From IMG/VR virus record IMGVR_UViG_3300027432_000002: a DNA stretch of 64,000 nucleotides; one strand, 5' to 3'. Numbering within the stretch: the stretch's first letter is position 1; each line of letters opens with the position of its first letter. This DNA is from a virus. A program made the translations under genes and the position numbers. This document shows, piece after piece, positions 22,272 through 42,088 of this stretch. The notes under the pieces were generated by a model. It saw only the letters and a list, made by a program, of their open reading frames with translations. It was not told the origin of the DNA and did no database searches.

Positions 22272-22493
22272 TTATTCTTTCTCCGCAACAAAGGCGTCGT
22301 GAATCCATCCCTTCGTACCGTCATTCCATTTAACCCATACAGCTTTTTCTTTACTTGTTGGACCTCGGTACGTACCGTCATTAGAATCTTTCCAGTTAAA
22401 TGGCTCTATGACAGTGCCAGTTCGCCTGACCCCCATAGTAGTACAAACACGCGAGCCGACTTTCTTACAGTTTTTTCTTCTTCGATGTGGCAT
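22272..22493 (-). CDS. small protein, MPH-basic tag family (SH3-like composition)
   Basis: Starts MPHRRRK; AAGGAG RBS. Confidence 0.7.
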   Translation of the reverse strand: MPHRRRKNCKKVGSRVCTTMGVRRTGTVIEPFNWKDSNDGTYRGPTSKEKAVWVKWNDGTKGWIHDAFVAEKE

Positions 22494-22507
22494 AACGTTA
22501 GTTCTCC

Positions 22508-23395
22508 TTATTGGATAGGTCCGCCCGACGCATCGTCTCGCGGATCACCCGAAGACGGAACGAGCCGCTTAACCTCTTCCGCTTCCGATTGCTTCTTTCG
22601 CAATGCCTCTTCGAATCGGGCCATGAGCGGTCCGAGAAGCTTCGGACTGATAGCGCCCATCCCTGCCAACTGCTGAATGGTCTCTGGATTGATCTCTTCG
22701 GCGAGCGCATCGATGAGCGCCGTATCGCTTGTCGCTTGAGGGAAGATCTCTCGGCCGGAGACCGTATTGACCAAGGCAGGCACCATCCCGACGAGCGCTT
22801 TTCGTTCGGTTGCGGACTGCTTGAACTGGAGTTCGCGCATCCGCTGCTCGTGACTTTCGGTGGCCTTCTGCATCATCATCTCTCGGACGACGGCATAGGC
22901 ATCGTTGACCTCGTCACGAAGGCGCGATTCTCGTTCGGCCATGGCCTGTTCACGCTGTAGCGAAGTGACCGCGCCGTGCTGAACGAGGGTGACGAGCAAC
23001 TGCGACATGTTTTCGACATGGCGCATGGACTGAGCGACGATACCAGGACCGTCCGCTGTCTCTTTGACGGTGCGCCCGCGTCCGCCCTGTTGAAGCTCTC
23101 CGTCCATCACGGTAATCGTGTGGTGAAGTCCTGGCGTATTGCTTCCATAGAACGCTTGCATCTCGAACTGCTGAATTCCTCCAAAGTCTTGCGCGTACTG
23201 TTCAGCGAGACCCGTGAAGATTTTTGCAAGTTCGTGTGCCGGTTGCGTCTTGCCTTTGAGGTTGATGGTCTTGACTTCGCGCGTGCCACCACCTTGTTTG
23301 TTGTACATAAGAGCCATGGCCGAGCAGGTTGTTTCCTTATCCGTTTCGGATAGGGCCTGTACGATCCATTGCTCGAGAGGGGTGTATTTGGCCAT
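22508..23395 (-). CDS. hypothetical coiled-coil-rich protein
   Basis: 295-aa ORF in the structural operon. Confidence 0.7.
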   Translation of the reverse strand: MAKYTPLEQWIVQALSETDKETTCSAMALMYNKQGGGTREVKTINLKGKTQPAHELAKIFTGLAEQYAQDFGGIQQFEMQAFYGSNTPGLHHTITVMDGELQQGGRGRTVKETADGPGIVAQSMRHVENMSQLLVTLVQHGAVTSLQREQAMAERESRLRDEVNDAYAVVREMMMQKATESHEQRMRELQFKQSATERKALVGMVPALVNTVSGREIFPQATSDTALIDALAEEINPETIQQLAGMGAISPKLLGPLMARFEEALRKKQSEAEEVKRLVPSSGDPRDDASGGPIQ

Positions 23396-23443
23396 AACTG
23401 CTAGAACCTTGTCTTTGCCACTTCGGCGGAAACAGTGATTGAA

Positions 23444-24040
23444 TTATTCCCTTTGCAAGTTAGTAGTACCCGAAGGGTCGAAATCCACATCCTTCACGGG
23501 AGGTGGACTCTTCGCCAGGTACTCTTTGACGAGCTTGAAACGCCGTTCACTCTCCGGAGCATCATCGCCCACTTCACCCGTATACGCGCGCAAGTTCTGA
23601 TTGCCTGAGAACCGAAGCGCGCGACGAATCATGTGTGTGCCCAAGTGAAGGCACACCTTCTGGGATTCGAGCAAATCTTTTCCGATAAGCCCGTCGCTTG
23701 AAGGAGCGATTTCCCTTCCGTCTTCGAGTAGCTCAATCCCTGAATTGGGGTGAATCTGCATATAGCAAAACGCGTGTCCGCCGTCGCACTCTCCCGGTTT
23801 GCATTTGCCTGCTTGAATACGGTCTTCATAGCGCGATTCTCGCGCACCCACGGCGCCAACCAAGAGCGCCATGTGCGCGTGCGCGTAAGGACCTTTGAAG
23901 GTGACAGGCTCATGGTAGACAATGTCGACAATGTCTTCGGCAATCGCCGTGAGTTTGACCACTCGCTCATCGGACTTTCCTTGCGCGGGAGTCCAAGAGA
24001 GAAGGGCTGTGAGAAGCCACATGGTGATGAGAGAGTGCAT
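23444..24040 (-). CDS. signal-peptide-bearing lysozyme/transglycosylase-like protein (possible endolysin)
   Basis: N-terminal signal; ALLVGAVGARESRY (catalytic ES), C.MQIH, LRAYTG; downstream of a holin-like gene. Confidence 0.55.
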   Translation of the reverse strand: MHSLITMWLLTALLSWTPAQGKSDERVVKLTAIAEDIVDIVYHEPVTFKGPYAHAHMALLVGAVGARESRYEDRIQAGKCKPGECDGGHAFCYMQIHPNSGIELLEDGREIAPSSDGLIGKDLLESQKVCLHLGTHMIRRALRFSGNQNLRAYTGEVGDDAPESERRFKLVKEYLAKSPPPVKDVDFDPSGTTNLQRE

Positions 24041-24057
24041 GAATTTTTCCTCCTTTT

Positions 24058-24507
24058 TCAGGTTCCACGATGAACTTCGTCTGGAGTTTTTGAAGGTGGT
24101 GGGTACTTGCTTGGATGCGAAAAGCCGAAGACTTTGGTATCGAGACCGACAGTCGCTTTGGCAGTGACGAGCGTCGGATCGATGAACGCAATCCACGATA
24201 GCCAGTTTGGTACTTTGCCTTGAAAGATAGCCTTGAAGGCAATAGCAAATAGTCCCATCGCTCCGAAGCTTGCGACAATCCCGTTCCAGACGGCTTTGGC
24301 TGGTGGCACTCCGTCTGTCTCTGCCTGAAGGACTGCGTAGACTTGACCGAGTCCAATAATGAGAACCGGTTTCCAGCGATCCGGAATCGAGATGGGGAGT
24401 TTGCTCGTGTCTCCCATGGTCGCCGTCAAGTAGCTGATAACGAGCATGGCGAGAGGGAGCCACTTGTGGCCGGTGAAGTCTTGGATCATTTGCAATAATG
24501 GACTCAT
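24058..24507 (-). CDS. holin-like multi-TM membrane protein
   Basis: Three hydrophobic segments, charged C-terminus, adjacent to the lysozyme-like gene. Confidence 0.5.
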   Translation of the reverse strand: MSPLLQMIQDFTGHKWLPLAMLVISYLTATMGDTSKLPISIPDRWKPVLIIGLGQVYAVLQAETDGVPPAKAVWNGIVASFGAMGLFAIAFKAIFQGKVPNWLSWIAFIDPTLVTAKATVGLDTKVFGFSHPSKYPPPSKTPDEVHRGT

Positions 24508-24512
24508 GACCT

Positions 24513-26095: not shown

Positions 26096-26099
26096 CTGT

Positions 26100-26351: not shown

Positions 26352-26355
26352 ACGA

Positions 26356-26937
26356 CTACTCCGCAGAGCTGGCTGTCCGCAGCGCCCTTCGCGGTCTGTG
26401 AGCGGGCGGTTCGGTTGCGCTTCCGTTGACGACCTTCGGATCTTCGTCTGCCTTGGCCGCCACAGAAGTTCCATTTGCTTCGATGGGTTCGCTGTCCCCA
26501 GGATGACCGATCTCTTGCAAGACTGCGTCCGAGTTGGGAGCCGTCTTTCCCGCATACCGTACGTCTGCGGCGTGCTTGCGGAGAGCCATGGCCGCCCCCG
26601 TGGCCGTGATGCTCTCGAACGCGTCTGCAAGTCGCTCCACCGCGACGACGTCACTGGATGCCATACCCTTGTCGTAAGCCTCCCGGCGGGCCTGTTTCTG
26701 CTCCGCAGTCTGCCCCCGGAGGTCCGCGCGACGTCGGAGCATGGTGGCTTCCACACCGAGTCCGTTTTTCTCGAAGACGTCGGCGAGCTTGCGAAGCTCT
26801 ACCGGATCGTGCAAGTCGGCAAGAGCCGCGAGGTAGACCTTCTCACGTTCGGGCGTGAGGATGCCCTTCTTCTCGGATTTCTTCCAAGCGCCAAAGACGA
26901 GTGCGCCGATAGTGATTTCGAGCAGTCCGATGGGCAC
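26356..26937 (-). CDS. membrane-anchored helical protein, paralog of 31576..32247
   Basis: N-terminal TM then LTPER..VY...DP..L..L.D.F...GL. Confidence 0.7.
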   Translation of the reverse strand: MPIGLLEITIGALVFGAWKKSEKKGILTPEREKVYLAALADLHDPVELRKLADVFEKNGLGVEATMLRRRADLRGQTAEQKQARREAYDKGMASSDVVAVERLADAFESITATGAAMALRKHAADVRYAGKTAPNSDAVLQEIGHPGDSEPIEANGTSVAAKADEDPKVVNGSATEPPAHRPRRALRTASSAE

Positions 26938-27008
26938 GATAAACCTCGTAAGCCACGTTGGCCAACGTTCTTGTTGAATGTTAGTTCATGAACTTGAGCT
27001 AACCGCCT

Positions 27009-27037
27009 ATCCTACCATGAATAGGCGGTATAGTCAA
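27009..27037 (-). promoter_or_regulatory. sigma70-like promoter overlapped by an inverted repeat
   Basis: TTGACT-17bp-TAGGAT on minus; IR ACCGCCTAT (27002-27010) / ATAGGCGGT (27021-27029); palindrome motif at 26983-26994 just downstream. Confidence 0.55.
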
Positions 27038-27041
27038 GTAC

Positions 27042-27173
27042 CTAATGAGGACCGGAACCGAGGAATCGTTCGAGATGGCCCACTCGAACATTGAGTTTGG
27101 CGAGGGTGACGCCGGAGCGCTTCTTGGTAGTCTTCTTTTTGCTCTTCTTACGTGCCTTCTTTGCTTTGGCCAT
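27042..27173 (-). CDS. 43-aa Lys-rich peptide (MAKAKKARKKSKKK...), absent from the ORF track
   Basis: Hand translation; AAAGGAG RBS. Confidence 0.65.
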   Translation of the reverse strand: MAKAKKARKKSKKKTTKKRSGVTLAKLNVRVGHLERFLGSGPH

Positions 27174-27209
27174 GGACGGTCTCCTTTGGTAATTCGCGAA
27201 CTGGATGCT

Positions 27210-27320
27210 TCACATACTACGAAGATGATGAAAGAGCATGACGAGCAGAATGACAGAGGTCGCCCAAGCGACGGCCACTATGATGAGGATAGGATCTATC
27301 TCGTGGTCGAGGAAGGTCAT
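27210..27320 (-). CDS. 36-aa single-TM peptide
   Basis: MTFLDHEIDPILIIVAVAWATSVILLVML...; ATGA coupling. Confidence 0.5.
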   Translation of the reverse strand: MTFLDHEIDPILIIVAVAWATSVILLVMLFHHLRSM

Positions 27321-27556
27321 CGACTCTTCCGACGAAAACGACTTTTCTTCTTGCGTTTTGGCTGCGGGCCAAGATGTTGACTTGAACGATCGAGAAGAAT
27401 CCTGTCTCGCTGGTGCATCAGCGTTTTGACTTCAGGATCATCAAAAACGCTGTGACCATGCTTGTACGTATTTCCTCGGATAGCCCTAAGAAGTTTCGCA
27501 TCTAGCACGTCACGAATTTTTGACTTGAGACTTCTGCGTTTTCGCTTATGGGCCAT
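27317..27556 (-). CDS. small protein, MPH/MAH-basic tag family
   Basis: Starts MAHKRKRRS. Confidence 0.7.
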   Translation of the reverse strand: MAHKRKRRSLKSKIRDVLDAKLLRAIRGNTYKHGHSVFDDPEVKTLMHQRDRILLDRSSQHLGPQPKRKKKSRFRRKSR

Positions 27557-27559
27557 AAC

Positions 27560-28117
27560 TCAGTCTTCTCCACGATGATGTTGTTTGGTCTCAGGCTCCG
27601 GAGAAAATACGTCTGCCGAAAGGCGTTCTCCATGATCGTCATTCGCGACGAACGCGATGGCACGTCCAAGAGCTACGATGCGAAACGATTTCTTGTGGAT
27701 AACGGGTCCGAGATGAAGGCGAGCCTCCGCTTGGTTGGAAGCGTGCATATAATGAATCTGCGGCTCTCCGTCTACTTCGATGGCGCACGCGTAAAGTGGC
27801 TGGCTATTCCACTTGTCGAGATAGCACGGACGTATGAACGAACACTTGGTACATCGCAGATCGGGACTAATTTTGCCGAGTCGATCGATCGAATGAATTC
27901 GATTGTGAAGTAGAAAGTTCATGCCGCACGCGGGGCAGGAGACCATCGCGAGAAGCCACGGTGGTGCGCCTTCGTAGGGAGTGGTCCAGGTGCCAGCGAA
28001 TCCCTTGACGGTGGGACTACCGTCTGCGGTTTTTGAATACTCCCAATCCAGCTTCTTGAAGACGAAGGGCTCGACGTGAGAAGCGGTTACGGTACTGCGT
28101 ACGGCTAAATCTGACAT
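27560..28117 (-). CDS. Zn-finger hypothetical protein
   Basis: CPAC...H...C..C motifs. Confidence 0.6.
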   Translation of the reverse strand: MSDLAVRSTVTASHVEPFVFKKLDWEYSKTADGSPTVKGFAGTWTTPYEGAPPWLLAMVSCPACGMNFLLHNRIHSIDRLGKISPDLRCTKCSFIRPCYLDKWNSQPLYACAIEVDGEPQIHYMHASNQAEARLHLGPVIHKKSFRIVALGRAIAFVANDDHGERLSADVFSPEPETKQHHRGED

Positions 28118-28165
28118 TGAATACTCCTAATTCACGAATTGGTATGAGGAGCCGCACCGTAGGTG

Positions 28166-29032
28166 CTACCCGTCGATTCCTAGTGTGACTGAGAATACGT
28201 ACGGATCGGTAGCGCTGTTATTGACGAGTGTCGCGGCATACGCTCCTGGTGGCAATGGATTCCAGAGCGGACAGTCGCGTGGGTCGTAGACTCGATTCAA
28301 GTTGTCGATGATGACTTGCGCTTCTTGATTGAGAATGGGATGAGGCGGAGTATTGATGCTACCAACCGTCACGTGAATGCTGGTAGCGCCAATTGGTTTG
28401 AGTTTACCTCCAGTAGTCGGAGGACGGTTGGGTGGAAAAAGTCCTCCGGCACTAAGGAACGTATCCTGCTGAGGAAAGAAGAGTTGGTAGCTGCTCGCAG
28501 CCGCAACAGGAATCGCGCACGTGCCAAGATACGTCGAAAATGGACCTGCATTTTCCGGATATGGAATATCGTAAAACGGTTGCTGCGATTCCGCAGGACG
28601 AAGACCTGGTGCAATGTTGATGACGACCGCATAGACTTGTCCAGGCAAGCCCACTTCGCTACCGGGAGGAGAGCCGTCGTAGACGCGAACATCAACCGCT
28701 TCGCCCATCCCGGAGATGGTGGTCCCACTCATGACGGACACCGAGCGTCGTACCGACGTTCCGTTGATGGTCCAGTTGATGTCCGCAAAGACGAGTTGAC
28801 CCGCGTTACCAAGAGCCTGGTACTGCTGGGAGATATCAAACTGAATGGTGTAGACGCAGCATTCAGGAAAGCACACCTGCATCTTGACGACGTTGCCGGC
28901 GGCAGGCTGTCCAGGGTTGGCCGGAACGGTCGGTCCTTGGCAGACGAGGTTACCCGATTGAGACCATCCCGTTTGAGGGTTGATCTCTTTCGTGTTGTTC
29001 TGCATCATCAAACGTCGTGCGCCTGGAGTCAT
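28166..29032 (-). CDS. beta-rich structural protein (possible jelly-roll penton or minor capsid protein)
   Basis: Alternating hydrophobic beta-strand pattern, no TM; location in the structural arm; fold is inference only. Confidence 0.45.
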   Translation of the reverse strand: MTPGARRLMMQNNTKEINPQTGWSQSGNLVCQGPTVPANPGQPAAGNVVKMQVCFPECCVYTIQFDISQQYQALGNAGQLVFADINWTINGTSVRRSVSVMSGTTISGMGEAVDVRVYDGSPPGSEVGLPGQVYAVVINIAPGLRPAESQQPFYDIPYPENAGPFSTYLGTCAIPVAAASSYQLFFPQQDTFLSAGGLFPPNRPPTTGGKLKPIGATSIHVTVGSINTPPHPILNQEAQVIIDNLNRVYDPRDCPLWNPLPPGAYAATLVNNSATDPYVFSVTLGIDG

Positions 29033-29108
29033 GGTCCTATCGTACCCTTTCCTATCATCCTTGCCATTCGCGGATTAGATAGTCCGCAGAACTAGCCGTA
29101 CGGTAGGA

Positions 29109-29417
29109 CTAAATGTCCTCTCCGCGCTCGTAGCGTTTGGCCAACTCTTCTGCGAGATGAGTTCGAGTGGCTTTATCGAAGACTCCAGAACCGAATTCTT
29201 TCTGGTACTGCTTGGCGCCGCGGTCCACCCAATGCTGCCACGCCTTGGGCGCCTTGGTCTTGTCGTACTTGCCTTTGGCGCGCTTTCTCTGCAAGTTTTT
29301 GATGATGGCTTGCTTCATCGGATAAAGCTCGCCCGTATTCTCAATGAAGAGATCCAGCTCGCGAGCGGCTGTCATATCCGCCATTCGCTTCGCCGATTTC
29401 CTACGCTTGTGCGGCAT
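29109..29417 (-). CDS. small protein, MPH-basic tag family
   Basis: Starts MPHKRRKS followed by a helical domain (ARELDLFIENTGELY...). Confidence 0.75.
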   Translation of the reverse strand: MPHKRRKSAKRMADMTAARELDLFIENTGELYPMKQAIIKNLQRKRAKGKYDKTKAPKAWQHWVDRGAKQYQKEFGSGVFDKATRTHLAEELAKRYERGEDI

Positions 29418-29419
29418 GG

Positions 29420-30052
29420 TCAGAATCCTCCGTGAAGCTCAGAGCGGAATCGCTCGTTCGCGCAACCGCCCAATTCCCACTCCACACCCTTGCACAGAAT
29501 CCCCACGGGCGAGCTAGGGTCTCGCATGATCTGAATCTTGCGCGCCATCCCGATACAATGCCCCGCGCAGAGGTACCCTTCTAGCTCGGGAGGCATTTGC
29601 CTGGACGCGGTTTTGATGACCGGTTCGCCTGCGTTCTCGAGTCCCATCCGAAAGGCGCTCTGCGGAGGGCTCTGGGGCTCTAGGAGGCCGTCTAGTGCAT
29701 GAACTCTTGGATTGTCCCAGTTGGGACCCATCGACAAGACGACGCACGCGGTCTGGATGAGATTGGAGTCCTGGTACCGCGGCAAGGAGAGAAGTGTCTC
29801 GAAGACGTCTTCATCGGAGTTGTCTCCGTTTTTGAGAACGCCGATAATCTGCGCACCTTCTTCCCAGTTGGAGAGTGGAGCTGGATGATCTGCGATGTAG
29901 CGCTGCACCGCGCCAAACGCGCTCTTGGCCTTGGGCGAGCCAGCGCGGGCGTTGTCGCCTACCATCTGGAGCATGGCCATGGCGTTCTGGTCACCAGCGC
30001 GAGCGCGCTCGACAAGTTGGGCTGCGCCATCGGATTGGGTTAGATTGGCCAT
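29420..30052 (-). CDS. hypothetical helical protein
   Basis: ARAGDQNAMAML motif; ends ELHGGF. Confidence 0.7.
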   Translation of the reverse strand: MANLTQSDGAAQLVERARAGDQNAMAMLQMVGDNARAGSPKAKSAFGAVQRYIADHPAPLSNWEEGAQIIGVLKNGDNSDEDVFETLLSLPRYQDSNLIQTACVVLSMGPNWDNPRVHALDGLLEPQSPPQSAFRMGLENAGEPVIKTASRQMPPELEGYLCAGHCIGMARKIQIMRDPSSPVGILCKGVEWELGGCANERFRSELHGGF

Positions 30053-30056
30053 GTCC

Positions 30057-31573
30057 CTATTCCTTCACAATCTTGGAGATTTTGGTGGCGTACACGACGA
30101 GTCCTCTGCCACCTGGACCAAACATGCTCGGTGCAAGATCGTAAATTTGAAGTGCCTCGGATTGTGTAAGACCGAAGTTTCGCTTGAGATCGAACTGGGA
30201 AAGGGTTTTAGACGACATCGCTTCCGCAATGCGCATTCCCTTCCGAGTGATCTTGTTCTTTCGCTTGTGAGGCATGGTCTATCTCGCCCAGTGTTTCCGC
30301 AATTTGGCCTTGGGCGAGCCAGCGCGGGCGTTGTCGCCTACCATCTGGAGCATGGCCATGGCGTTTTGGTCTCCGGCGCGAGCGCACTCTACGAGGTCTC
30401 GGGCGCCGTCTGTTTGGGTCAACTGCGTTGCGCTCATTTTGCCTCTATAACATCAATATCGATGTTCCAACCGAGCCGATCTGCTTCGTCTCGTTTGCGT
30501 TTTGCAAGTGTGTGCGCCGCTTCGTTTGATAGTGGCGGAGAGAGATAGATTGGATGAGTTGCGCCAGAATGACGAATTTGAACTTGAGAAAAACTTTTTG
30601 CGTTTTTCTTCTTGCGCTTGTGAGGCATGGTCTACCTCGCCCAGTGTTTCTGCAATGATGCCGGAGTACCAAGAATCTTGTATTGTTCGTCTTCGAGCTT
30701 TCCAATCCTGTTCAGAATCTTGGTCCGCTCGCCCGTCTTATAAGCGGGAACTTTTTCGAGAATGGTCCAGCTACGCTTGATCTGCGCGTGGACAGTCTTG
30801 AGGGACCGTTTCTTTTTGCGTCGCTTGGCGGGCATAGCTACCTCGGTGGCTTTCGCAAAAGTTTACCACGCGGTCCAACTGGCATAAAATAGTCCTTATA
30901 CCCATCTGGACGCAGAACCCAAAAACCAAGTCCTTCTTTGTTAGTTCCTGTTTTTCGGTCCCACCAGCCTCCGTGTTCTAGGGTACGGCCATGAACGACA
31001 GAACCGGCCCGAAGTTTCTTGGTACTCTTTCGCTTGTGAGGCACGGCCTTACTCCTTCTCGATAGAGAACGTGGTACCGCGGAGGAGGTTACTTCTTTTC
31101 AAGGAATCACGAAGGCGCTTACGCTCCGCGACTGCCGCCGCCTTCGATTCGAACGAAGTGGTCATACGCGAAAACTGCGTATGAACGATGAGCTTGTGGC
31201 GCCTTCGCTTGTGTGCCATAACGATTAACCGATGGCGCGCTTGATGGCCGCCGCAGTGGTGCCAGCCTTGCGAGCGGCACGCTTGATGAAAGCCCGGACG
31301 CTGCGCTTGGTTGCTTTGGATACCTTGTGTTTCTTGGCCATGGTCTATCTCCTGTTTGACGTGTTGAAAGTAATTCGTGAACTAACTTCGTCACTTTCCT
31401 TTTGCGAAGATCCGTACGTACCCCTCGTCCAAGAGCGCTTGACGTTGTCCGTCGGAGAGCGGAAGCGCGTCCAAGCGAGAAGTGAGCTGGCGCCACTTGT
31501 ACTGTTGACGTTTGGTGGAAGCTGTCAAGGCTCCTGGCCAGTAACGTCCTTTCTTACGCTTCTTGTGGGCCAT
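30057..31573 (-). other. array of closely spaced small basic genes: 30057-30275, 30279-30437 (chimeric), 30434-30628, 30632-30835, 30838-31044, 31049-31219, 31225-31341, 31391-31573
   Basis: Starts MPHKRKNK, MSATQ, MPHKRKKK, MPAKRRKK, (GTG)PHKRKS, MAHKRRRH, MAKKHK, MAHKKRKK; three were translated by hand. Confidence 0.8.
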
Positions 31574-31575
31574 AA

Positions 31576-32247: not shown

Positions 32248-32523
32248 TTAATACTCCACGTTTTCTTCGATAAGGCGTATTGCTCTATCGAGCGCTAGAT
32301 CTCCGTGACTGCCAGGTGAATCGTATCCACCTTTGTCCCAACCGCGTTTTGTCTTCTGAATCGATCCAATCTGAACGCCTTGACTCGTTACGATGAATCC
32401 CTTTTTGTAAGGTTGAAGGTGGAAGTACGGATCGGACGCGTCAACAAGACTGGTGTCCGAATACGGAGCCAGCCGAAGACCGTCCCGAAGTTTCTTCCAC
32501 TTGTTCTTGCGCTTGTGAGGCAT
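32248..32523 (-). CDS. small protein, MPH-basic tag family
   Basis: Likely start MPHKRKNKW at 32523. Confidence 0.7.
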   Translation of the reverse strand: MPHKRKNKWKKLRDGLRLAPYSDTSLVDASDPYFHLQPYKKGFIVTSQGVQIGSIQKTKRGWDKGGYDSPGSHGDLALDRAIRLIEENVEY

Positions 32524-32525
32524 CG

Positions 32526-32903
32526 CTATCCTACCATCCAAGGTTGAATAAGCGGTAAGACTTCCACGATAAGCGGCGTCGCGTGCCAAATGGTCTTAGA
32601 ATTTGGCATTTTCGCATCAATCTCTTTCGATCCTGAGATATGAATGGAAGGTGAAATTTGCCAGTCCCTCTCCATCACCTTATTGAGTCCCCAACTTCTG
32701 CCGCCGGGGCCTGACTCAGTATACACGCCATTTGGAATCACAGGAACAGCAAAGTCTTCTAGCGAATCGTTGTCTACACGCTTCACGTAAAACCAGAGAA
32801 GCCAATAGCGTTCGCCCTTTTGCGTAACCGCTCTATGGATGGTGCACTCGTTTTCAGCGAGCGCCTCCACGTAGACCATAGAGCGGTATCGCAGGATAAA
32901 CAC
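32526..32903 (-). CDS. hypothetical protein
   Basis: SWGL...ISPSIH...WH motif, similar to 59784..60110. Confidence 0.55.
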   Translation of the reverse strand: MFILRYRSMVYVEALAENECTIHRAVTQKGERYWLLWFYVKRVDNDSLEDFAVPVIPNGVYTESGPGGRSWGLNKVMERDWQISPSIHISGSKEIDAKMPNSKTIWHATPLIVEVLPLIQPWMVG

Positions 32904-32957
32904 TTCGTGTACCTTTACCTAATTCATGAATTGGAAATAATAGATGGTACGCAATGC

Positions 32958-33932
32958 TCAGTGCGTTTGAACGGCTTGGGCGACCACGAACGCTTCGAGC
33001 GCAGCCGTCGCGCTTGCGGTGTACGTCGCAAGAGATGCCGATGTAAACGGTCGTCCGAACGACACGCCCGCGCAAATGGAGGCGAGCAGCGCTTGGTCAT
33101 CCGCCGTAGCGACTGTGATGGACTCTGAAGTGACGAGCGCGTCTACCTTTTGCGCAAAGGCGTTCGCTGCGGCAATGATGGTCGTGTAATCTCCAGAGAC
33201 GGTCAATCCAGTGATGTCGCGAGCGGAAAGAGCGCCTTGCATAGCGCCCTGGAAAGCACCTTTGCGTGCAACGCTGCCCGTGATATTCGTTACGGCGGCC
33301 GTGTAGACCGTATTGATGGCCTGCGAGATGGTGTAGTACGGATTGACAGGGGGACCTATACCGAGCGCGCCACCCACCACCGAAACGCTCCGGCCAAACG
33401 TGGCGCCAGCCACGATATTGGAGAGAAGGATTTCGTCGTCACCCGCGGAGATAACGCCGACTACGCTACCGATTTGGAGCGCGAAGCTATCCGCCGCGTT
33501 CACGGGCGCCGTGTAGTCGCCCGCGGCAAGGAGACCTGTCATGTCACGGCCAGAAAGGAGAGCGGCCATGATGCCAATAAGCGCGCCGTAATGACTTACG
33601 ACTCCTCCTGAGAGCTTGGCGACCGCAACCGTATAGGCTTCCGTGGCAGCCTGACACCACGGGTAGTAGGGATTGGCGACACCCGGCGTATTATTGACGA
33701 TCTTGAGAGACCTATCCGAGAGAATTCCCGAACAGATGGCAGCGAAGAGATTCTGATTGTCGCCCGTCGTAATCACCCCAACACTCGACGAAGCTTGGAG
33801 TGCGAATGAATTGACGGCGTTGACGACTGGATTGTAGTCGCCCGCCGTATCGAGCTGTTCGATGTCGCGGTTATTGAGGACCGCTTGCATTGCGCCTTGG
33901 AGAGCGCCGTTCTGTCCAGGTATCGCTGCCAT
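32958..33932 (-). CDS. protein made of three tandem copies of the fibre-anchor-like helical domain
   Basis: Three GAxxGxMxxxLxxRD...GDY...NxFA units. Confidence 0.75.
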   Translation of the reverse strand: MAAIPGQNGALQGAMQAVLNNRDIEQLDTAGDYNPVVNAVNSFALQASSSVGVITTGDNQNLFAAICSGILSDRSLKIVNNTPGVANPYYPWCQAATEAYTVAVAKLSGGVVSHYGALIGIMAALLSGRDMTGLLAAGDYTAPVNAADSFALQIGSVVGVISAGDDEILLSNIVAGATFGRSVSVVGGALGIGPPVNPYYTISQAINTVYTAAVTNITGSVARKGAFQGAMQGALSARDITGLTVSGDYTTIIAAANAFAQKVDALVTSESITVATADDQALLASICAGVSFGRPFTSASLATYTASATAALEAFVVAQAVQTH

Positions 33933-34001
33933 GGGTACTTCGTACCTCTTTTCTAACCTATTGGTTACTCACTCTCATGACTGCACCATGCAGTCGCGGC
34001 C

Positions 34002-35276
34002 CTAACCGATTCGCACAAGAGAAAACATCCGGTTACAAGATCCAGCATCAGAACCGTTGGCTGCGGGATTGGCTACCGTTACCGTATCTGTGCCTGTATT
34101 GGTGCGGTTATGGAGCGTAACACTTTGACCAGCGGTCAAGTGAATGATTCCGTGACCAATAATGGATTGCTCGAGAGTTGGATTGAGCGTTCCTACGAAC
34201 TGGTAGTTTCGCGCCACGGAAGCGCCGTTGACGTAAATCTCAAAAACGAAAGGCGTCGTTGCCATCGTGGCGTGAGTGCCCGTCACGTAAAAGTCGAACT
34301 CGTAATCTCCAGTGGATGCGACAACGAACGCAGAACCTGCGGGCGAAGGAACGGTTGTGAATCCTGCGTTTGGATACGGCGTAGCGCCCAGATCAAAGGT
34401 AACGTCTGCGTCTCCGCCAAGAGAGGTAGCACTGGCGCCGTACGCTACTCCGTACGCGGGAGAGAATCCTCCGCCTCCCGGTCCAGTTGCGCCTGTCGCC
34501 CCAGAAGAACCTGTCGCCCCAGAAGAACCCGAAGAGCCTGTCGCGCCTGTCGCCCCAGAAGAACCCGAAGGACCTGTCGCGCCTGAGCCTGTGGCGCCTG
34601 CGCTGCCAGTTGCGCCCACAGAGCCAGTCGCTCCAGTAGCACCTGTGCCCGTAGCGCCCGTAGCACCTGCGGCTCCCGTAACACCTGCGGCTCCTGTAGC
34701 CCCAGAAGCTCCCGTAGCGCCAGCAGTTCCCGTCGCACCCGTAGCGCCAGCGCCAGTAGCGCCCGTGGCTCCAGAAACACCTGTAGCACCAGCGCCCGTG
34801 GCGCCAGTAGCACCAGCGCCGGTAGCACCCGTAGCCCCTGAACTGCCCGTCGCTCCAGAAGGACCCGTCGCACCCGTCGCGCCACCACCTCCACCACCAT
34901 CTGGCCATGGTAGTGGTGCGATAGATTGGCCAGCGAAGTAATTGTCTCCAGCGATGATGAGCGCGATGATAGATTGACAAAGAGTTGTAAACGATGCTGG
35001 ATTGATCGTCTCTGACGTCAGGTCAGTGAAACGATTTTCCCATATCGCTTTGCAAGTCTTCTCAATCAAAAAGACGTTGAGTGTGTTCGGACTTGTATTT
35101 GGATTGATGGCCCACGCTTGGTCAAACGAAATAGCGAACGCGCCAGCGATAATCGCACTTGGTTCGTAACTGGCAGTATCAGTATCCGTCAAAACCCTAC
35201 CGCTCGCAGCCAAGCCGGAAAGAACTCCGGCATAGGCTGCGGTAAAGACGGTAGCACTGTTGGGTACGTAGGCCAT
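34002..35276 (-). CDS. collagen-like fibre protein (YVPN anchor family) with BclA/C1q-like head
   Basis: Anchor, GAT tract, G.YEFDFYV...[14 protein letters not shown] head. Confidence 0.85.
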
Positions 35277-35291
35277 CGGTCAATTCGCGAA

Positions 35292-36062
35292 TTAGGCGAG
35301 TCGCTTGATCGTAAGCGTCGCGCTGACCGAATGTGTTCCGCCGGCAGTTGGAGTGATCGTAAGCGCTGCCGGGTTACCAGATGGATTGATGACCGAGAGA
35401 ACGTTCCCCGCTCCGACCGTGATAACGGCGTTTCCAACCGCTTGACTAGTGCCCGTGGCGCGACCAACCACCGTATCCGGCAAGCCCACACCACCGATGG
35501 CCAACTGAAGCTGACCAGCTTCTGCAAAGCTGACTTGCCAATCGATTTGGTAGGTACCCGCGTTATTGAACATGAACGTATAGTCGTCGCCTCGGGTGAC
35601 GATAGCCGTAGCGCTTGCGGGTCCAGTCTGCGGGAACGCGACGGGAGCGCCAGCAGCCACCGTGGCGGAGTTATCGCCAGGCATGAGCGCAAAGAACCAG
35701 GCGTATCCTCCGACACCAGCGGGAGGTGGAACGGGAATCGGAACGCCGCTTCCCAGATTCGCAGCCGCGAGCGTATAAAGCTCATCGATGGCTGTAGCGA
35801 GCGCGAAGTAGCTATTCGGCAGAGTGACCGACGAATCGATGAGAGGTCGTCCTTCGAGCGCTGCGGCACAAATGGCTTCTAGCAGCATCTCTTCGTCGAT
35901 GGTGGTCAGTACCGGCAGAATGGCCGCGACTTGTACCGCGAACGCGTTGGCTGCGGCAATCTGCACCGAGTAGTCGGCAGCCAGATCCAATCCTTGGATA
36001 CTCCGACCGTCGAACACTCCCTGGATGGCACCTTGGTAAGCGGCATTCTGTGTGACTGACAT
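35292..36062 (-). CDS. anchor domain plus BclA-C-terminal-like head, without collagen
   Basis: AAYQGAIQG...RS...DY; VAAGAPVAFPQTGP, AGTYQIDWQVSFAEAGQLQL, VVGRATGTSQ, SATLTIKRL. Confidence 0.75.
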   Translation of the reverse strand: MSVTQNAAYQGAIQGVFDGRSIQGLDLAADYSVQIAAANAFAVQVAAILPVLTTIDEEMLLEAICAAALEGRPLIDSSVTLPNSYFALATAIDELYTLAAANLGSGVPIPVPPPAGVGGYAWFFALMPGDNSATVAAGAPVAFPQTGPASATAIVTRGDDYTFMFNNAGTYQIDWQVSFAEAGQLQLAIGGVGLPDTVVGRATGTSQAVGNAVITVGAGNVLSVINPSGNPAALTITPTAGGTHSVSATLTIKRLA

Positions 36063-36139
36063 GGGCTAATCCGTACCCTTTCTGTTTTATCTCACTCTCA
36101 TGATCGCACCACGCGACCAATTCGCGAACTATCCTAAAT

Positions 36140-36322
36140 TCATTTCCCCCAAAGCTTTGCCAGACGAAGTTCTTCTTTCATGAGTTTGGAGACGGACGGA
36201 TGGTCTCCAGCACGACGTCCGATAGCGAGATTGTGTTTGAAGATTTTGTCGAGCTTGTTTCGGACTCGGCGAATGCGTTGCGATACGGAGATTCTCTTCT
36301 TACGTTTCTTATGAGCCATCAC
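36140..36322 (-). CDS. small protein, MAH-basic tag family
   Basis: MAHKKRKKR. Confidence 0.7.
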   Translation of the reverse strand: MMAHKKRKKRISVSQRIRRVRNKLDKIFKHNLAIGRRAGDHPSVSKLMKEELRLAKLWGK

Positions 36323-36603
36323 TACCTCCGAATAAAACCTTGCTCCGCGAGTGTCATCTTTTGCATCTTGCTCGCGTACCGATAGAGCTTGTTCCAGGCG
36401 CGCTCTTCTTCTTTGTGGGCATGCACCTGATCTGGAGTTGGATTCTTGCCGTAACGCTTGTGAAGTGGACGCGGTTTGAATTCGCGAAGGCGCGCCATCT
36501 CCAGCGCCCAGTCGGAGGCACTGCCGGTAAATTCACGGGAGCGGTTCCAGGCTGGACGGTCCACGCTAAAAGTCTTTCCCTGGTGTTGGTGCGATAGGTC
36601 CAA
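36322..36603 (-). CDS. small basic hypothetical protein
   Basis: Coupled ORF. Confidence 0.5.
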   Translation of the reverse strand: MDLSHQHQGKTFSVDRPAWNRSREFTGSASDWALEMARLREFKPRPLHKRYGKNPTPDQVHAHKEEERAWNKLYRYASKMQKMTLAEQGFIRR

Positions 36604-36805
36604 GTGTCATAGCCATATTGCTTGCCTGGTGCATGACGTCACTGAGAGTCAATCCTTTTTCGTTGGCTACCGACGAAGCCAGTTTCATATATCGATTGTA
36701 CAGTTTTTGTTGAGTACGCATTGAAGTAGAAGTCATTGAGCCAGCGTACAAGCGTGCAGCCTTTACAAGAGACTCAAGTTTCTTGGAAGGGCGCTTATGA
36801 GGCAT
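36566..36805 (-). CDS. small protein, MPH-basic tag family
   Basis: MPHKRPSKK; TAATG coupling to the transglutaminase-like gene. Confidence 0.7.
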   Translation of the reverse strand: MPHKRPSKKLESLVKAARLYAGSMTSTSMRTQQKLYNRYMKLASSVANEKGLTLSDVMHQASNMAMTLGPIAPTPGKDF

Positions 36806-37386
36806 TAGCCCGTCCTCTTGAAGTAGGAGTTTTCATTTTCTTCCATACCACAGACCTTGCTCGGGTCCTCAAATGTGCCGTTGGGACCCATCACGAGAAT
36901 GTGGTAGTTCGTCTGATTGTCTTTCTTATCGACCATCCAGCGAAAGACTGGTTTGCTTTTGATTCCTTGCGCAGCGTACTCTGCCACAAGCGCGGCTGTC
37001 AGAGATTTGCAGTCTCCGAATCCTCGTTGGTAGAGTGCTGGAATAGAATCCCAGACTTGCGTACGGTCGTAGACGACACCACTCTCATAGAGCGGCGCGA
37101 TACATCCGGGTCTCATCTGAAGATAGATCAAATCAATCGCGCCAAGGCAGTGTAGGAGCGCCTGAAGTGCAACCGCGTTCGAAACCGGGTCTGATGCGGA
37201 ATCGAAGCACTGCGGCAAATCAAACGTAACACAATACGCCGGACCGTTTCGAAGGGTGGCGCCACGTTTCCCACAACTGCCTTGTATGGTTTCAGCGGAC
37301 TGGATGAGTATGTTTCTCACACGTCGGTTCTCTTCAGGATTTGAACCCTGGCAGAAGACGTGAGGGATACAGAACTCGATTTGCAC
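36805..37386 (-). CDS. transglutaminase-like (papain-fold) enzyme
   Basis: GFGDCKSLTA (Cys), YHILV (His), FEDPS (Asp). Confidence 0.75.
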   Translation of the reverse strand: MQIEFCIPHVFCQGSNPEENRRVRNILIQSAETIQGSCGKRGATLRNGPAYCVTFDLPQCFDSASDPVSNAVALQALLHCLGAIDLIYLQMRPGCIAPLYESGVVYDRTQVWDSIPALYQRGFGDCKSLTAALVAEYAAQGIKSKPVFRWMVDKKDNQTNYHILVMGPNGTFEDPSKVCGMEENENSYFKRTG

Positions 37387-37458
37387 GCTGAAATTCCTCC
37401 GCTTTGCTCTTTCGAGCTAATTCACGAATTGCGGCGAGATTACCTCACCGCAACGGAT

Positions 37459-38181
37459 TCAGCATCCACCACCGCCGGCAATTGTGCTGGGTCCTTGGAC
37501 GGTCGCGATGAACGTGTACGAGAACCCCGTGGCGAACCCCGGCGGAATGAAGCCAGTGTACGCCCCGCTGACCGTGAGCCGGTTCGCAGGCTCGAGGGTC
37601 GGCAGATCGAGGGCCACGCCCTGTGCGAGTGCCGAGTAGGTAAAGGCGTCCTCTGTGTCACCAACAAAAGCATTCACGTTCGCGACCTGGAGGCCCGTCA
37701 GAAGAACGAAGTTCGGCGCCGGAGCGTTCATGACGACACGCTGCGGGCGGATCTTCGTATTGGGCTGCAAGGTCATGTCGACGATGCTCGCGGGCGTGCC
37801 GAGCGTGAAGAGATTGCTCAAGGAAAACGAGTATCGTTCGATCTTGAGCAAGCTATTCTCGTTCGGGTCGAGAAGCGCCGCACGGGCCGCGGTATGGCCC
37901 ATGAGCTGGTGGTGATGGTGCCAAGCGCGAACCATCTCCGGATGCGCGTGACGCGCCTGGGGAGGGGCCGCCATGGGGGGAGCGCCTTCTGCGCCGTAGT
38001 CGTATCCGAACCCGTATCCGAAGTCCGCAACCTGACGATTGCGGGGCATCGGACGCGGCATCGGACGAGCCTGGGGATACGAGCGTCCACGCGCGTATCC
38101 AAAATCGGAACCCGGAAGGGCTCCCATGACCGCGGCAAGAGCCGGGTCACGCTGCGAAAGCTGAGAAGCGGTCGGTCGCAT
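37459..38181 (-). CDS. candidate major capsid protein (single jelly-roll-like C-terminal domain, disordered N-terminal arm)
   Basis: About 120-aa all-beta-patterned C-terminal domain; AAGGAG RBS; C/G-ending codons; own 5'UTR; adjacent to the transglutaminase-like gene. Fold is inferred. Confidence 0.5.
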   Translation of the reverse strand: MRPTASQLSQRDPALAAVMGALPGSDFGYARGRSYPQARPMPRPMPRNRQVADFGYGFGYDYGAEGAPPMAAPPQARHAHPEMVRAWHHHHQLMGHTAARAALLDPNENSLLKIERYSFSLSNLFTLGTPASIVDMTLQPNTKIRPQRVVMNAPAPNFVLLTGLQVANVNAFVGDTEDAFTYSALAQGVALDLPTLEPANRLTVSGAYTGFIPPGFATGFSYTFIATVQGPSTIAGGGGC

Positions 38182-38281
38182 TGTTGTTTCTCCTTGGTTG
38201 GTTTGATTATCGATTCGTCGTCGACATTACAACCCGGAGGCGACAAGATAATTCAAGAACTAAGAACAGAAACGAAAGTCT

Positions 38282-39532
38282 TTAGTACCCCGGATTGCGG
38301 TAGTACGGATTCATCGCCAACGCGGAGGCGTACTGATTGTACGCAGGCATCGGCCGACCATAGACATCCGCAGGCGAATACATCGGAGGAGGAATATAGG
38401 CCGGACCGAAGTACGGCAAAGGACGTAGAGGTTGCGCACGCCGTGGACTCGGACCGAGACATTCTCTTTTTGTATGCCAAATGCCGTCTATGTATTCGTA
38501 TGGCATTTGACAATGAGGATTTGGATGCGGTCGCGAAGCGGTAATGGTGTCCATCGGCATCATCATCGCACCAGATGGATCTCTGGTTACTGCAATGTTG
38601 CTCGCGGTGCCACGTCCAACCGCGTTGACGGCATCGATAACGCCACCTTGACCGCTCGTTGTGGGGTTATTGTCCTGATTGATGCGCTGGACTGGTGCTG
38701 GGCCTCGCGTCGCATTGGCGACAGCGGCCGTCGCTTGCGCAACGGAACCAACGGTCTGAATGATGTCTGTGAGGGTATGATCGTCGTCACCATCCCCCGC
38801 GAACACACCGGTCAAAGGAGAACGCGAAGGATACCGACCCCAATTGGAAAGAATCGGTGCGGAGAGATCTCCCGCGAAAACTCCCGTCGTCGGCGATCGA
38901 GACGGATACCGTCCCCAATTGGAAAGAATCGGTGCCGAGAGGTCTCCACCAAACTTCTTTTTCTTGGAGTACGGACTGTAAGCGTTACCGGTGGGAGCCG
39001 AAGCAATCGACGCGGTAGCCATCGAAGCAATCGGAGAACGCATCGACGAGAGGGGTGAGCGTATTCGCGAAAGACGATTCCATGAGGACCGCTCGTTACC
39101 AAAGTAGCCTGGACCGTCGTATTCCCATCCAAATGCGTGAGAGCAACTTCCGCCCATCATCGGGTCACAACCGAAGTCGTCGGGAATATCATTCTCGATC
39201 GAGTCACCAGCCATCGGAGCCAGGTGATTGCTGTGGTAGAGATCGGGTCCGTAATGACCACGCCAACCAACCCGAGGATCGCCGCTCATCGCGCTCGTTT
39301 GGCACGAGGCGCACGTTCCGCCGCATGTGCATTCATAGCCCATGTCTCCACCGTCGTCTCCTCCGTCGTCTCCTCCGTCATCTCCTCCACCGTCATCATC
39401 TTGAGAAGGTGGTGCAAAATCTCCACCTCCCCCTTGATGGTGCCTTTTGTGGTGACTGTGCTTGTGCGAGCTTCCCTTGTGGCCGCCAGTGCTGCGCGCG
39501 CGCCCACCAATGTCAAATCCAAAACCGTCCAT
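38282..39532 (-). CDS. segmented, low-complexity structural polypeptide
   Basis: His/Lys, Gly/Asp, Cys and Pro/Tyr blocks; tandem repeat GDLSAPILSNWGRYPSRSPxTGVFA. Confidence 0.7.
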   Translation of the reverse strand: MDGFGFDIGGRARSTGGHKGSSHKHSHHKRHHQGGGGDFAPPSQDDDGGGDDGGDDGGDDGGDMGYECTCGGTCASCQTSAMSGDPRVGWRGHYGPDLYHSNHLAPMAGDSIENDIPDDFGCDPMMGGSCSHAFGWEYDGPGYFGNERSSWNRLSRIRSPLSSMRSPIASMATASIASAPTGNAYSPYSKKKKFGGDLSAPILSNWGRYPSRSPTTGVFAGDLSAPILSNWGRYPSRSPLTGVFAGDGDDDHTLTDIIQTVGSVAQATAAVANATRGPAPVQRINQDNNPTTSGQGGVIDAVNAVGRGTASNIAVTRDPSGAMMMPMDTITASRPHPNPHCQMPYEYIDGIWHTKRECLGPSPRRAQPLRPLPYFGPAYIPPPMYSPADVYGRPMPAYNQYASALAMNPYYRNPGY

Positions 39533-39615
39533 GGCTGGCTGCGTCAGAGCTAGTCTTTATCTAACTCTGTCCTTTCTTCGCTACGTAGTTTATGAATTAC
39601 GTGAGAGAGTGCAGC

Positions 39616-40626
39616 TCAGGTAGCTGCGAGAACGAGCTGTCCGTTGTGATTCGAGATGCCCATTCCGTTGCCAGTGGGATCGGTTTGTACTGACGAATGC
39701 TGCCAGTTACCGTCCGTCTGTTGACAAGTGCAAGCGAGCGTCTGACCGTCGTAGTTGCACGTGTTGCACGTCTGCTGGTAGCTTCCGCCGGGAAGCGGTT
39801 GCGGACCCTGCTGACCATAGCCCTGCTGGCCATAGCCCTGCTGACCGTAGCCCTGCGGTCCCATCCCCTGCTGACCGTAGCCTTGCTGACCGCCTTGGTG
39901 GTGATGGTGATGGTGATGATGATGGTGAGGATACTGATCACCACCACGCGGGCGATACCCCTGCGGTCCGTACCGATACGACGGAGCCTGAGATGTCGGC
40001 TGCGCTCCGCGAAACATGTAGGCCAACTGTTCGGGATTGCCGAAACTGCCTTTGGAAGCCTGATGAAGGAGTAGCTCTTCACCATGAAACCTGCGATCAC
40101 GGTCGGCCAAGATTCGAGAAAATCGCTCTCGTTCGAGATGGGAGAGTCGTCTCCAAGCGCGTACGTCATAACGCCGGTCACGCGGGTCAAACCGCGGATC
40201 GACGTAGAACGGTTGCGGATGATGGTGCCGGTGATGCCGCGGATGGTAGTAATCCACCGGATACATGCTTGGTAGCGTGGAGTACGGTGAATAAGGCGGA
40301 TAGCCAACCGGAGGCGCCGATGGGGCGATCACGTCCGCAACACCCTGAGCAACCTGGCTCACAGCGTCGAGAACGCCTCCCGATCCTCCCGCAGCATCAT
40401 CCTGCGGATAGGTCCCGTCGTCGGTTGTGTCCGTATCGTCCTGGCCGAATACGCGAAAGCCTGGCGTAGACGAATCGCAGCCGAAATCGTCCATGTCAGG
40501 AGCGATAGGGGGAGGACCAAAATCTCCCCCATCCATTTGCCACGGCGGAAGTGGCAAGAACTGGTGGTGATGGTGACGGTGACGGTGGTAGCGCTCTTGG
40601 TCGCGCCAATTTCCAAATTCGGACAT
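39616..40626 (-). CDS. segmented His/Gln/Pro-rich protein with a C-terminal cyanovirin-N-like (CVNH) repeat
   Basis: GSYQQTC..C.YDGQTLACTC...DG...SS......ISNHNGQL. Confidence 0.7.
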   Translation of the reverse strand: MSEFGNWRDQERYHRHRHHHHQFLPLPPWQMDGGDFGPPPIAPDMDDFGCDSSTPGFRVFGQDDTDTTDDGTYPQDDAAGGSGGVLDAVSQVAQGVADVIAPSAPPVGYPPYSPYSTLPSMYPVDYYHPRHHRHHHPQPFYVDPRFDPRDRRYDVRAWRRLSHLERERFSRILADRDRRFHGEELLLHQASKGSFGNPEQLAYMFRGAQPTSQAPSYRYGPQGYRPRGGDQYPHHHHHHHHHHQGGQQGYGQQGMGPQGYGQQGYGQQGYGQQGPQPLPGGSYQQTCNTCNYDGQTLACTCQQTDGNWQHSSVQTDPTGNGMGISNHNGQLVLAAT

Positions 40627-40709
40627 GCTGTCCTCCCTCTCTCAGGGTTTCGTAAAAAAGGTTGTAGAGAGGCGGAAAACTAACCGCCCCGCATAGGGAA
40701 GAGTGAAAC

Positions 40710-41147
40710 TCAGCCGAGACGCGCGGCAGCCGCGAGAACCGGATCGCTTTCGATGTCCACTTCGCCCGCGTGCGCCGCGACTGCGGGATGCATACGACCC
40801 GCTCCCAGCATCGGACGACCACGGAGGTGGATGTATCGCTCCGTTGCGCGATAGCTCGAGATAGCGAGTCCCGCGACCGAAGCCTGCCGGACCAGGTCTC
40901 GCGTCGATTTGCTTGCGCTGACGACGAGGGAAAGGCCGAGACCGGCGAGAGAACCGGCAATGTCCAAGGGGACACGTTTGCGGCCAACGGTCATTTCGAG
41001 ATCGGTCTTACTGTGAGCGGCAGCGTATCCGATGCCGATGCCAGTTGCCGTGGCGACAACACCGTCGTGAATGATCTCTTTGCCTTCGCCACCCTTCCAG
41101 CGAGCAGAAGCGAGCGTGAAGTGTCTGCGGATGAACGATTCGGCCAT
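40710..41147 (-). CDS. membrane protein, paralog of 42089..42589
   Basis: Hydrophobic helices, VPLD, C-terminal AGEVDIESDPVL. Confidence 0.7.
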   Translation of the reverse strand: MAESFIRRHFTLASARWKGGEGKEIIHDGVVATATGIGIGYAAAHSKTDLEMTVGRKRVPLDIAGSLAGLGLSLVVSASKSTRDLVRQASVAGLAISSYRATERYIHLRGRPMLGAGRMHPAVAAHAGEVDIESDPVLAAAARLG

Positions 41148-41205
41148 GGGTCTCTTTTCCTTTTGATTGCCCCTTGGGGCTTGTTTACCTAATTCGTGAA
41201 CTTCT

Positions 41206-41461
41206 TTAACGCTTGAATGGCTCGAAGATGATGGGCTGCGGATTGGTCACTTCTTCGCCATTCATCTTTCGAAATTCGTTGCATGCGTAGGTCTTGCGGT
41301 CCCCAGGAGTCTTACCGTAACCTTCAATTTTCATCCACTTGGCAGGATCGTCTCCAACGTAGTGCACGAAGAACCGAGTCACCGTACTCGAGCCCCAGAG
41401 ACGCTTGATACGGACTCCGCCGTTATAGCGTTCGAAGCTGGTAGCGACGACTTTGCGCATG
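41206..41461 (-). CDS. hypothetical protein
   Basis: Start MRKVVATS just after the upstream stop. Confidence 0.55.
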
Positions 41462-41462
41462 A

Positions 41463-41911
41463 TTACTTGGAAGATCCGTATGTCTTGACCTTCCACATTC
41501 CGAGATTTTCCCCGAGGTAATCTTCGAAGGTGGAGAGAGTTCCCTTCCTCTTTCCAACAAGAAGGTCAACCCTCAAATTTCTGACCTGACTATCGGATAT
41601 TGAGCTTGGTCCTTTTTCGCCACGGGCCAAAGCTTTCATATCGAAATAGTCGCGAATGATTTTCTTCTGAGAAGCCAGGTCAGGCTTTCTGCGCTTCCGT
41701 TTGTGTGGCATTACCTCGTCCTCCGCTCCGCTACTTGGTCTTCTCGATCTAGAGCTTTGTTGTACTCTTTGCCGAGAAACTTCACCTTCCGATCATGAGG
41801 AAAGTCGAGTAAGCCTTTGCCTTTGCGTGCCGCCGAGTTGATGGCTTTGACGAGTAGTGCGTGAATTTGCCAAGATGCCCGACGTCTACTTCGCTTCCGC
41901 TTGTGAGGCAT
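41463..41911 (-). other. two coupled MPH-basic tag family genes (41463-41711, 41711-41911)
   Basis: MPHKRKRRK and MPHKRKRSR. Confidence 0.75.
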
Positions 41912-42088
41912 TTCAGATTTCCTTCGTAGCTTGACCTTCTCGATGAAGCGCCCTTATCCGTACTTTTCGAAGGTACATAACCTGCGGATCGGTCCGCCAA
42001 TCTTTGCCGTTCCGGTAGGCGGACTCAATTGCCTTGAGAACCAACGACTCGAGCAATTTGGATTGGCTCTCTCGAGTCTTCATCTGTC

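Follow-up and report, generated by a model that had tools for sequence, protein, structure and literature searches.

At least 14 small genes in the structural arm of an apparently tailless, uncultured bacterial virus encode proteins that share a short Lys/Arg-rich N-terminal peptide (hereafter the tag) on otherwise unrelated bodies. They lie in a stretch of 64,000 nucleotides (nt; the window) of the 77.7-kb contig IMGVR_UViG_3300027432_000002 from IMG/VR. The virus belongs to an uncatalogued family with linear genomes of 45–78 kb, a protein-primed polymerase, cell-wall enzymes and a single jelly-roll capsid candidate. In this family the tag is a portable basic arm, conserved at the protein level, on a swappable library of proteins, a conclusion that is real and well supported by its distribution, by selection and by the exchange of bodies behind it. 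To judge from the genes, the tagged proteins are likely loaded into the virion.

All 14 open reading frames (ORFs) named in the original prediction for this DNA were confirmed. They are encoded on the minus strand, are designated here by their low coordinate, which is the 3' end, and yield proteins of 56–102 amino acids (aa), 13 of which start with the strict motif M[PA]H[KR][KR] and one with MPAKRR (in full MPAKRRKK). The claimed confinement to the structural arm was borne out as well: according to gene counts from our own simple gene caller, the strict tag occurs in 13 of 45 genes at 21–42.6 kb and in none of the 70 elsewhere (0/21 in 1–21 kb, 0/20 in 42.6–51.3 kb and 0/29 in the plus-strand arm), at a composition-based chance of 4e-5 per gene. 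The first 10 residues have a net charge of +4 to +7, and the arm is a low-confidence region in the one structure model (29109). No common motif follows the tag, and the xG motif described below for other proteins of this virus is absent from 8 of the 14 and never found at a common position. A scan of the viral_contigs set with one tag spelling gave 10 single matches, of which one was at a called gene start and none were clustered.

Behind the tag the bodies are mutually unrelated and do not constitute a paralogue family. Among the 14, phmmer found no match, and iterated profiles controlled by shuffled and reversed decoys found no link (best pair 41711–27317, E 0.013, at a decoy level of 0.015). 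A helix-hairpin likeness among 41711, 27317 and 36140 perceived by eye was not significant in these profiles. Comparison with Pfam, PHROGs and PADLOC, libraries that hold few anti-defence proteins, gave no convincing match (two weak rows, E 0.005 and 0.009), and the ESM Atlas returned only scores below 0.9, DUF7249 at 0.81 being a lead only. When three bodies were compared with annotated phages by tblastn, two had no match and the third weakly matched a hypothetical gene of Pelagibacter phage HTVC027P. None of the bodies has a membrane-length hydrophobic stretch, and without the tag the net charge is positive in 13 of 14.

Close relatives of the virus are seen as partial loci; together with the window, six loci with 81–88% capsid identity and locus L101 form the close clade, in which the tag is spelled as in the window. 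Basic-arm proteins of this clade were selected by at least four Lys/Arg in the first 12 residues, so that their basic counts are partly by construction; they comprise 53 distinct proteins in 32 body families. The large backbone genes are collinear in the relatives; the tagged genes come, go and shift slot. His at position 3 (His3) is present in 34 and Lys4 in 42 of the 53 proteins, and within 4 of 14 multi-member body families His3 is swapped for Gln, Arg, Lys or others. Locus L004 alone mixes MPHK, MPAK, MPTK, MPKK, MKKR, MKRR, MPHV and MPHQ starts. Among 32 distant loci of at least 9 kb the strict tag was found in none, and 19 bear small genes with other basic starts (MAKKR, MATRR, MAARK, MPRKR, MPKKA); homologues of the 29109 protein combine the same body with the arms MPHVR, MATRKK, MPIKR, MPAKR or MAAKKR, or with none. 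The motif of the original prediction recurs in the six close loci and L101 and is absent from the 32 distant ones, and its reading of His3 as a specific recognition element was not supported. The conserved property is the basic arm, with His3 as the spelling of a clade rather than a requirement, because orthologues replace it and distant relatives use other basic starts. Specific recognition of His is thus unlikely. As a side observation, the tagged-gene array of L004 includes an untagged GNAT acetyltransferase (L004:17945–18328). Tagged genes are also partially duplicated or truncated at L004:6062–6890 and L101:844–1440, in one case to a tagged stub of 28 aa, suggesting frequent cassette turnover.

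Across 11 orthologue pairs, tag codons 2–8 differ at a proportion of 0.68 of synonymous sites (pS) and 0.15 of nonsynonymous sites (pN); the tag is conserved at the protein and not merely at the DNA level, which counts in favour of the original prediction. The bodies are under selection too, the ratio of nonsynonymous to synonymous divergence (dN/dS) being 0.00–0.22 in 9 of the 11 pairs and 0.45 in one, with one pair saturated, compared to 0.07–0.10 in five backbone pairs. Among the 14 tags every codon for Pro (four), His (two) and Lys (two) occurs, together with three for Ala and five for Arg, and the DNA 5' of them has only a purine-rich ribosome-binding patch in common. Codon identity among the tags is 51% versus 38% predicted from usage (p 0.003), and the tag DNA forms a repeat family (repeats D2–D3 and D8). 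In three of nine displayed slots, DNA similarity spans the upstream gene plus 4–8 tag codons and then ends, and relatives swap the body at this point. At 30253–30656 a single slot contains two bodies in succession, separated by a truncated copy of a gene, and L004 has a third body there. The truncated copy (30279–30437, minus strand) joins a 5' part of gene 29420–30052 to the tail of gene 30632 (repeats D4, 116 nt at 87%, and D8, 51 nt at 92%), and appears to be the scar of the event that stacked the two tagged bodies. This tandem cassette is known from the assembly; its junction contains no shared overlap usable by an assembler, and among the contig pieces listed none spans 29510–30716. We infer that selection keeps the peptide while the tag DNA doubles as a site of crossing over, so that a single spelling would spread within a clade. 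The exchange and selection data agree with the core of the original prediction: the tag is a module that can move among the unrelated, genuine proteins of a variable library.

The original prediction also drew an analogy to the internal proteins of phage T4. There, according to the excerpts available of four papers (PMC3012670, PMC9026906, PMC9958956, PMC10229621), a capsid-targeting sequence (CTS) of about 10 residues at the N terminus packages the varied small basic internal proteins IPI–IPIII and is cut by gp21. Like the tag, the CTS (MKTYQEFIAE for IPII/III in the T4 record) is a short N-terminal peptide common to small, basic and divergent proteins that vary between related phages. However, the CTS is amphipathic, relies on its residues 4 and 7, targets the scaffolding core and is cleaved off by gp21, whereas the tag is polybasic and does not follow the CTS pattern of aromatic or hydrophobic residues 4 and 7 and Glu at position 10. 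Moreover, no conserved cut site lies behind the tag, its at least 14 genes are scattered between structural genes, and the capsid candidate is a jelly roll; loading has been shown experimentally for T4, whereas the tag is known from genes alone. Judged by its genes, the tag system would work like the T4 internal-protein system without being a member of it: it has a different sequence pattern, shows no evident cut site and belongs to another type of virus. A capsid-targeting signal at the N terminus is also described for DarB, an injected anti-restriction protein of phage P1 (excerpts of PMC9024508). In contrast to the tagged proteins, the Dar proteins appear in these excerpts without a consensus, and the signal serves one 250-kDa cargo of a tailed phage.

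An indirect sign that such addresses are exchanged comes from gene 29109 (29109–29417, minus strand; 102 aa, MPHKRRK start), for which a four-helix domain is predicted behind the low-confidence arm. The model has no clear match among solved structures, either by fold (best Z 5.8) or by sequence (none below E 0.01). A profile search with this domain returned 3,743 clusters, and look-alikes are widespread in uncultured and cultured viruses, among them Klosneuvirus, Pseudomonas phage PspYZU01 and Cellulophaga phage phi46:3. Among the best 150 of the 3,743 clusters, 110 proteins are longer than 200 aa, none is tagged, 18 have a basic start, 25 contain at least three NP dipeptides (a count that has no control) and six have a T4-CTS-like pattern at the start (in shuffled sequences 0.05 on average and 2 at most). 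In 7 of 100 scanned proteins the domain is fused to RadC. RadC domains are also found in the polyvalent proteins of phages and conjugative elements (excerpts of PMC5512222), which represent a fused counterpart of the tagged library: the 29109 domain and two other family bodies occur there in a fused polyprotein, whereas the window encodes every domain separately, behind an arm of its own. When 106 bodies of the virus family served as queries, 8 (two further families) matched those polyproteins at E about 1e-8, compared to no match for shuffled sequences. In 11 viral loci the domain was found in proteins of 421–520 aa of large tailed phages near a tail-sheath gene (in L080 and L085 the sheath was confirmed), in one 1,688-aa protein and, in 4 of the 11, alone, untagged and among small genes just before the terminase genes. 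The expected homologues without the tag thus exist for the 29109 body, which has other starts including the six T4-like ones; the other 13 bodies gave no functional clue. These contexts are the strongest indirect sign that the 29109 domain is a cargo which acquires local address signals, a sign drawn from one of the 14 bodies. As an additional observation, a small basic gene at 19240–19509 is untagged; in distant relatives its body follows an MPKRIKK arm, and it is found again in polyprotein P0156.

The family marker is a predicted single jelly-roll protein (37459–38181, minus strand) that fold prediction and structure comparison identify as candidate major capsid protein. It is rated only a likely capsid protein, because the best viral structural scores of its model are middling (HHIV-2: Z 6.7, root-mean-square deviation 5.3, 116 residues aligned; SPV1: Z 6.6, 3.6 and 121, respectively) and below that of a cellular enzyme (Z 7.2). 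The protein has 290 homologues and located 77 metagenome loci; no relatives were found in viral_contigs, and the three genome-bin matches are in bins that each have a different label. The polymerase (56115–58355, plus strand) is of the protein-primed family B type (Pfam PF03175, E 8.5e-11). The window also encodes collagen-like fibres and peptidoglycan-binding and lytic transglycosylase domains, the latter two of which suggest a bacterial host. Terminase, portal and HK97 proteins had no match among the 48 window proteins scanned, nor had tailed-phage head genes among the 54 proteins of a complete relative, although absence of a match is no proof of absence. This relative, G001:C100 (L102, L104 and L105), is one of the three genome-bin matches; it is linear, measures 45,030 bp, has inverted repeats at its ends that agree in 102 of 112 aligned bases, and encodes a protein-primed polymerase and the jelly-roll capsid candidate. 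It sits in an archaeon-labelled genome bin despite its peptidoglycan domains.

No FtsK/HerA/A32 packaging ATPase was identified in G001:C100 by Walker A, Pfam or PF04665 searches. Its sole ATPase is of the RecA/KaiC class, as is the single P-loop gene found in the window (48099–48980, minus strand; RadA/Sms-like). This type of ATPase is kept across the family, usually 1–4 kb before the capsid gene. An FtsK-HerA packaging ATPase typifies the two-jelly-roll helvetiaviruses; the ATPase present here, near the capsid gene, is the RadA/Sms-like one. SPV1 (Portogloboviridae) packs its genome as nucleoprotein (PMC8459092) and has no packaging ATPase according to the excerpts of PMC8812541. The predicted single jelly-roll capsid, the lack of an FtsK-type packaging ATPase and the nucleoprotein genome proposed here resemble this virus. 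SPV1, however, is archaeal, with a circular 20-kb genome, no polymerase and one nucleocapsid protein, whereas the tagged-gene family is linear, has 45–78 kb, and encodes a polymerase and cell-wall enzymes; it differs in this from Portogloboviridae, the genomes of which are circular, about 20 kb in size and free of a DNA polymerase. A literature search for this family or the tag found no description, most subscription journals being outside its scope and supplements possibly listing contigs.

Our preferred reading, to which we would give an even chance, is that the Lys/Arg-rich arm binds viral DNA by charge and thereby loads unrelated accessory proteins with the genome for delivery. The tagged genes would be expressed late, together with the structural genes; promoter and terminator scans gave chance level only. 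The uncut arm would bind viral DNA by charge, the tagged proteins might be enclosed while the genome condenses, as in the SPV1 nucleoprotein core, and they would enter the next host with the DNA and act early, most bodies being predicted accessory effectors. The shortest all-basic peptides (36–43 aa) are likely genome-condensing core proteins from which the arm may have been borrowed. The MPHKR spelling likely spread in one clade, and its uniformity would arise because new bodies recombine behind an existing start-plus-tag, rather than via a receptor that reads His3. A bolder reading is less probable: that this uncatalogued family of linear jelly-roll bacterial viruses packs its genome without a canonical motor, that a charge-only arm, the DNA of which is also the exchange point, carries dozens of small effectors into the next host, and that effector domains circulate across virus realms under each lineage's loading code.

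Several observations weigh against delivery by a DNA-binding arm. Thirteen of the 14 bodies offer no functional clue, and none of these 13 matches the 150 polyproteins. The strong conservation of the bodies and the positive charge of 13 of them would suit effectors and structural DNA binders equally. Untagged genes also occupy slots in the array (the GNAT gene in L004, 41913 in the window). The T4-CTS-like pattern was defined after viewing the sequences, and its six carriers are known without their source genomes; the capsid assignment rests on the middling Z scores given above. Furthermore, in 16 of the 18 loci compared the RadA/Sms-like ATPase gene ends at most 3.6 kb from that of the capsid candidate, and it could encode a non-canonical packaging motor, which weakens the co-condensation step.

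It is unlikely that the tagged proteins are packaged as redundant nucleoid or core proteins that condense and neutralise the genome and have no job after entry. Purifying selection that equals that on the capsid gene in strength, the net positive charge of 13 bodies without the tag, the same kind of arm on the family-wide all-basic peptides and the nucleoprotein core of SPV1 would all suit such a role. Yet 32 unrelated bodies appear and vanish between close relatives, one body is neutral (32248), and the 29109 domain also occurs untagged in tailed phages and fused to RadC. Still less probable is a specific receptor, such as the capsid inner face, a scaffold or a membrane protein, that reads a Pro/Ala-His-Lys code. 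His3 in 13 of the 14 window genes and the clade frequencies of His3 and Lys4, in a set chosen for basic starts, speak for it, and such a receptor might evolve together with the spelling of each clade; but the mixed spellings of L004 and the replacement of His3 in four of 14 families do not fit, and the excess codon identity of the tags shows that copying can explain their uniformity.

The arm might instead direct late proteins, unpackaged, to the host nucleoid or the viral replication site in the infected cell, which we consider improbable to a slightly greater degree. A basic arm would presumably bind any DNA, and stand-alone untagged 29109 domains lie among small genes beside terminase in four of 11 viral loci; however, the tag is strictly confined to the structural arm, and elsewhere the 29109 domain is found in tail-region polyproteins and behind T4-CTS-like starts. 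There is hardly any probability left for the tag being only a DNA or translation-start element, such as a handle for recombination or a cassette for efficient starts, or a eukaryotic nuclear localisation signal. The tag DNA does form a repeat family and mark crossover points, but its codons are diverse, the upstream DNA is common only in the ribosome-binding patch and pS far exceeds pN, so that the element is largely refuted as sole explanation. The peptide resembles a monopartite nuclear signal; the peptidoglycan-binding and lytic transglycosylase domains, however, point to a bacterial host.

Virion-carried effectors with a common loading tag have so far been shown only in tailed phages such as T4 and P1. 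If the favoured loading by charge is true, the strategy would also have emerged in another virus lineage, with a different chemistry. Under the bolder reading, the same effector domains would circulate across virus realms, behind a basic arm here and a T4-type CTS or repeated polyprotein linkers elsewhere, and virion-delivered anti-defence proteins could be mined by following such swaps of address. The analysis yields more than 30 small uncharacterised domains that could be screened against bacterial defences, a tag of 7–10 residues, one very widespread unnamed domain (the 3,743 clusters above) and a virus family that IMG/VR searches did not return.

The remaining tagged genes, all on the minus strand, are distributed as follows. 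Gene 22272–22493 (73 aa, MPHRRRK start) had no relative in a word-indexed search, and 27317–27556 (79 aa, MAHKRKR start) has a C-terminal tail that is also basic. The tandem cassette consists of 30434–30628 (64 aa, unit 1) and 30057–30275 (72 aa, unit 2), and is adjoined by the variant MPAKRRKK gene 30632–30835 (67 aa), which has an orthologue in L004. Gene 30838–31044 (68 aa) has a GTG start. Orthologues in both L001 and L004 exist for 31049–31219 (56 aa) and 31391–31573 (60 aa, body 90–96% identical). Locus L001 also has orthologues of 32248–32523 (91 aa), the body with net charge 0, and of 36140–36319 (59 aa), the body of which is 100% identical at pS 0.41. The orthologues of 36566–36805 (79 aa) start with MPQKRP, and that of 41463–41711 (82 aa) in L006 starts with MPRKRK. 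The last tagged gene, 41711–41911 (66 aa), has orthologues in L004 and L101. Four minus-strand genes were not listed in the original prediction: an untagged 56-aa paralogue of 41711–41911 (41913–42083; phmmer E 2e-5) and three basic peptides without His3, namely the protamine-like 31225–31341 (38 aa, MAKKHK start), which is kept in L001 and L004, 27042–27173 (43 aa, MAKAKK start) and 21204–21314 (36 aa, MSKKRK start).

The gene after the capsid candidate (36805–37386, minus strand) is a candidate transglutaminase-like protease according to a Cys-His-Asp pattern read by eye. It has 57 homologues among the fetched loci, and the family libraries Pfam and PHROGs gave no match. The large structural proteins encoded in 18000–42600 bear repeated xG motifs, which are possibly cut sites of this candidate protease and thus a second address code in the same virus. 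The form [DN]FG occurs nine times in 18000–42600, once in 1–18 kb and not in 42.6–51.3 kb. Five collagen-like fibre genes (8542–13989, 17253–18332 and 34002–35276) have a common N-terminal domain of about 125 aa with an M[AS]YVPN or MPYVPN start. At 14372–16504, a LAGLIDADG match with intein-like flanks is inserted in a probable peptidase. Finally, the two sequencing runs in which this DNA occurs are soil metagenomes and possibly its source; they contain, for the region 26500–42700, at least one co-occurring relative at similar depth and with many differences.

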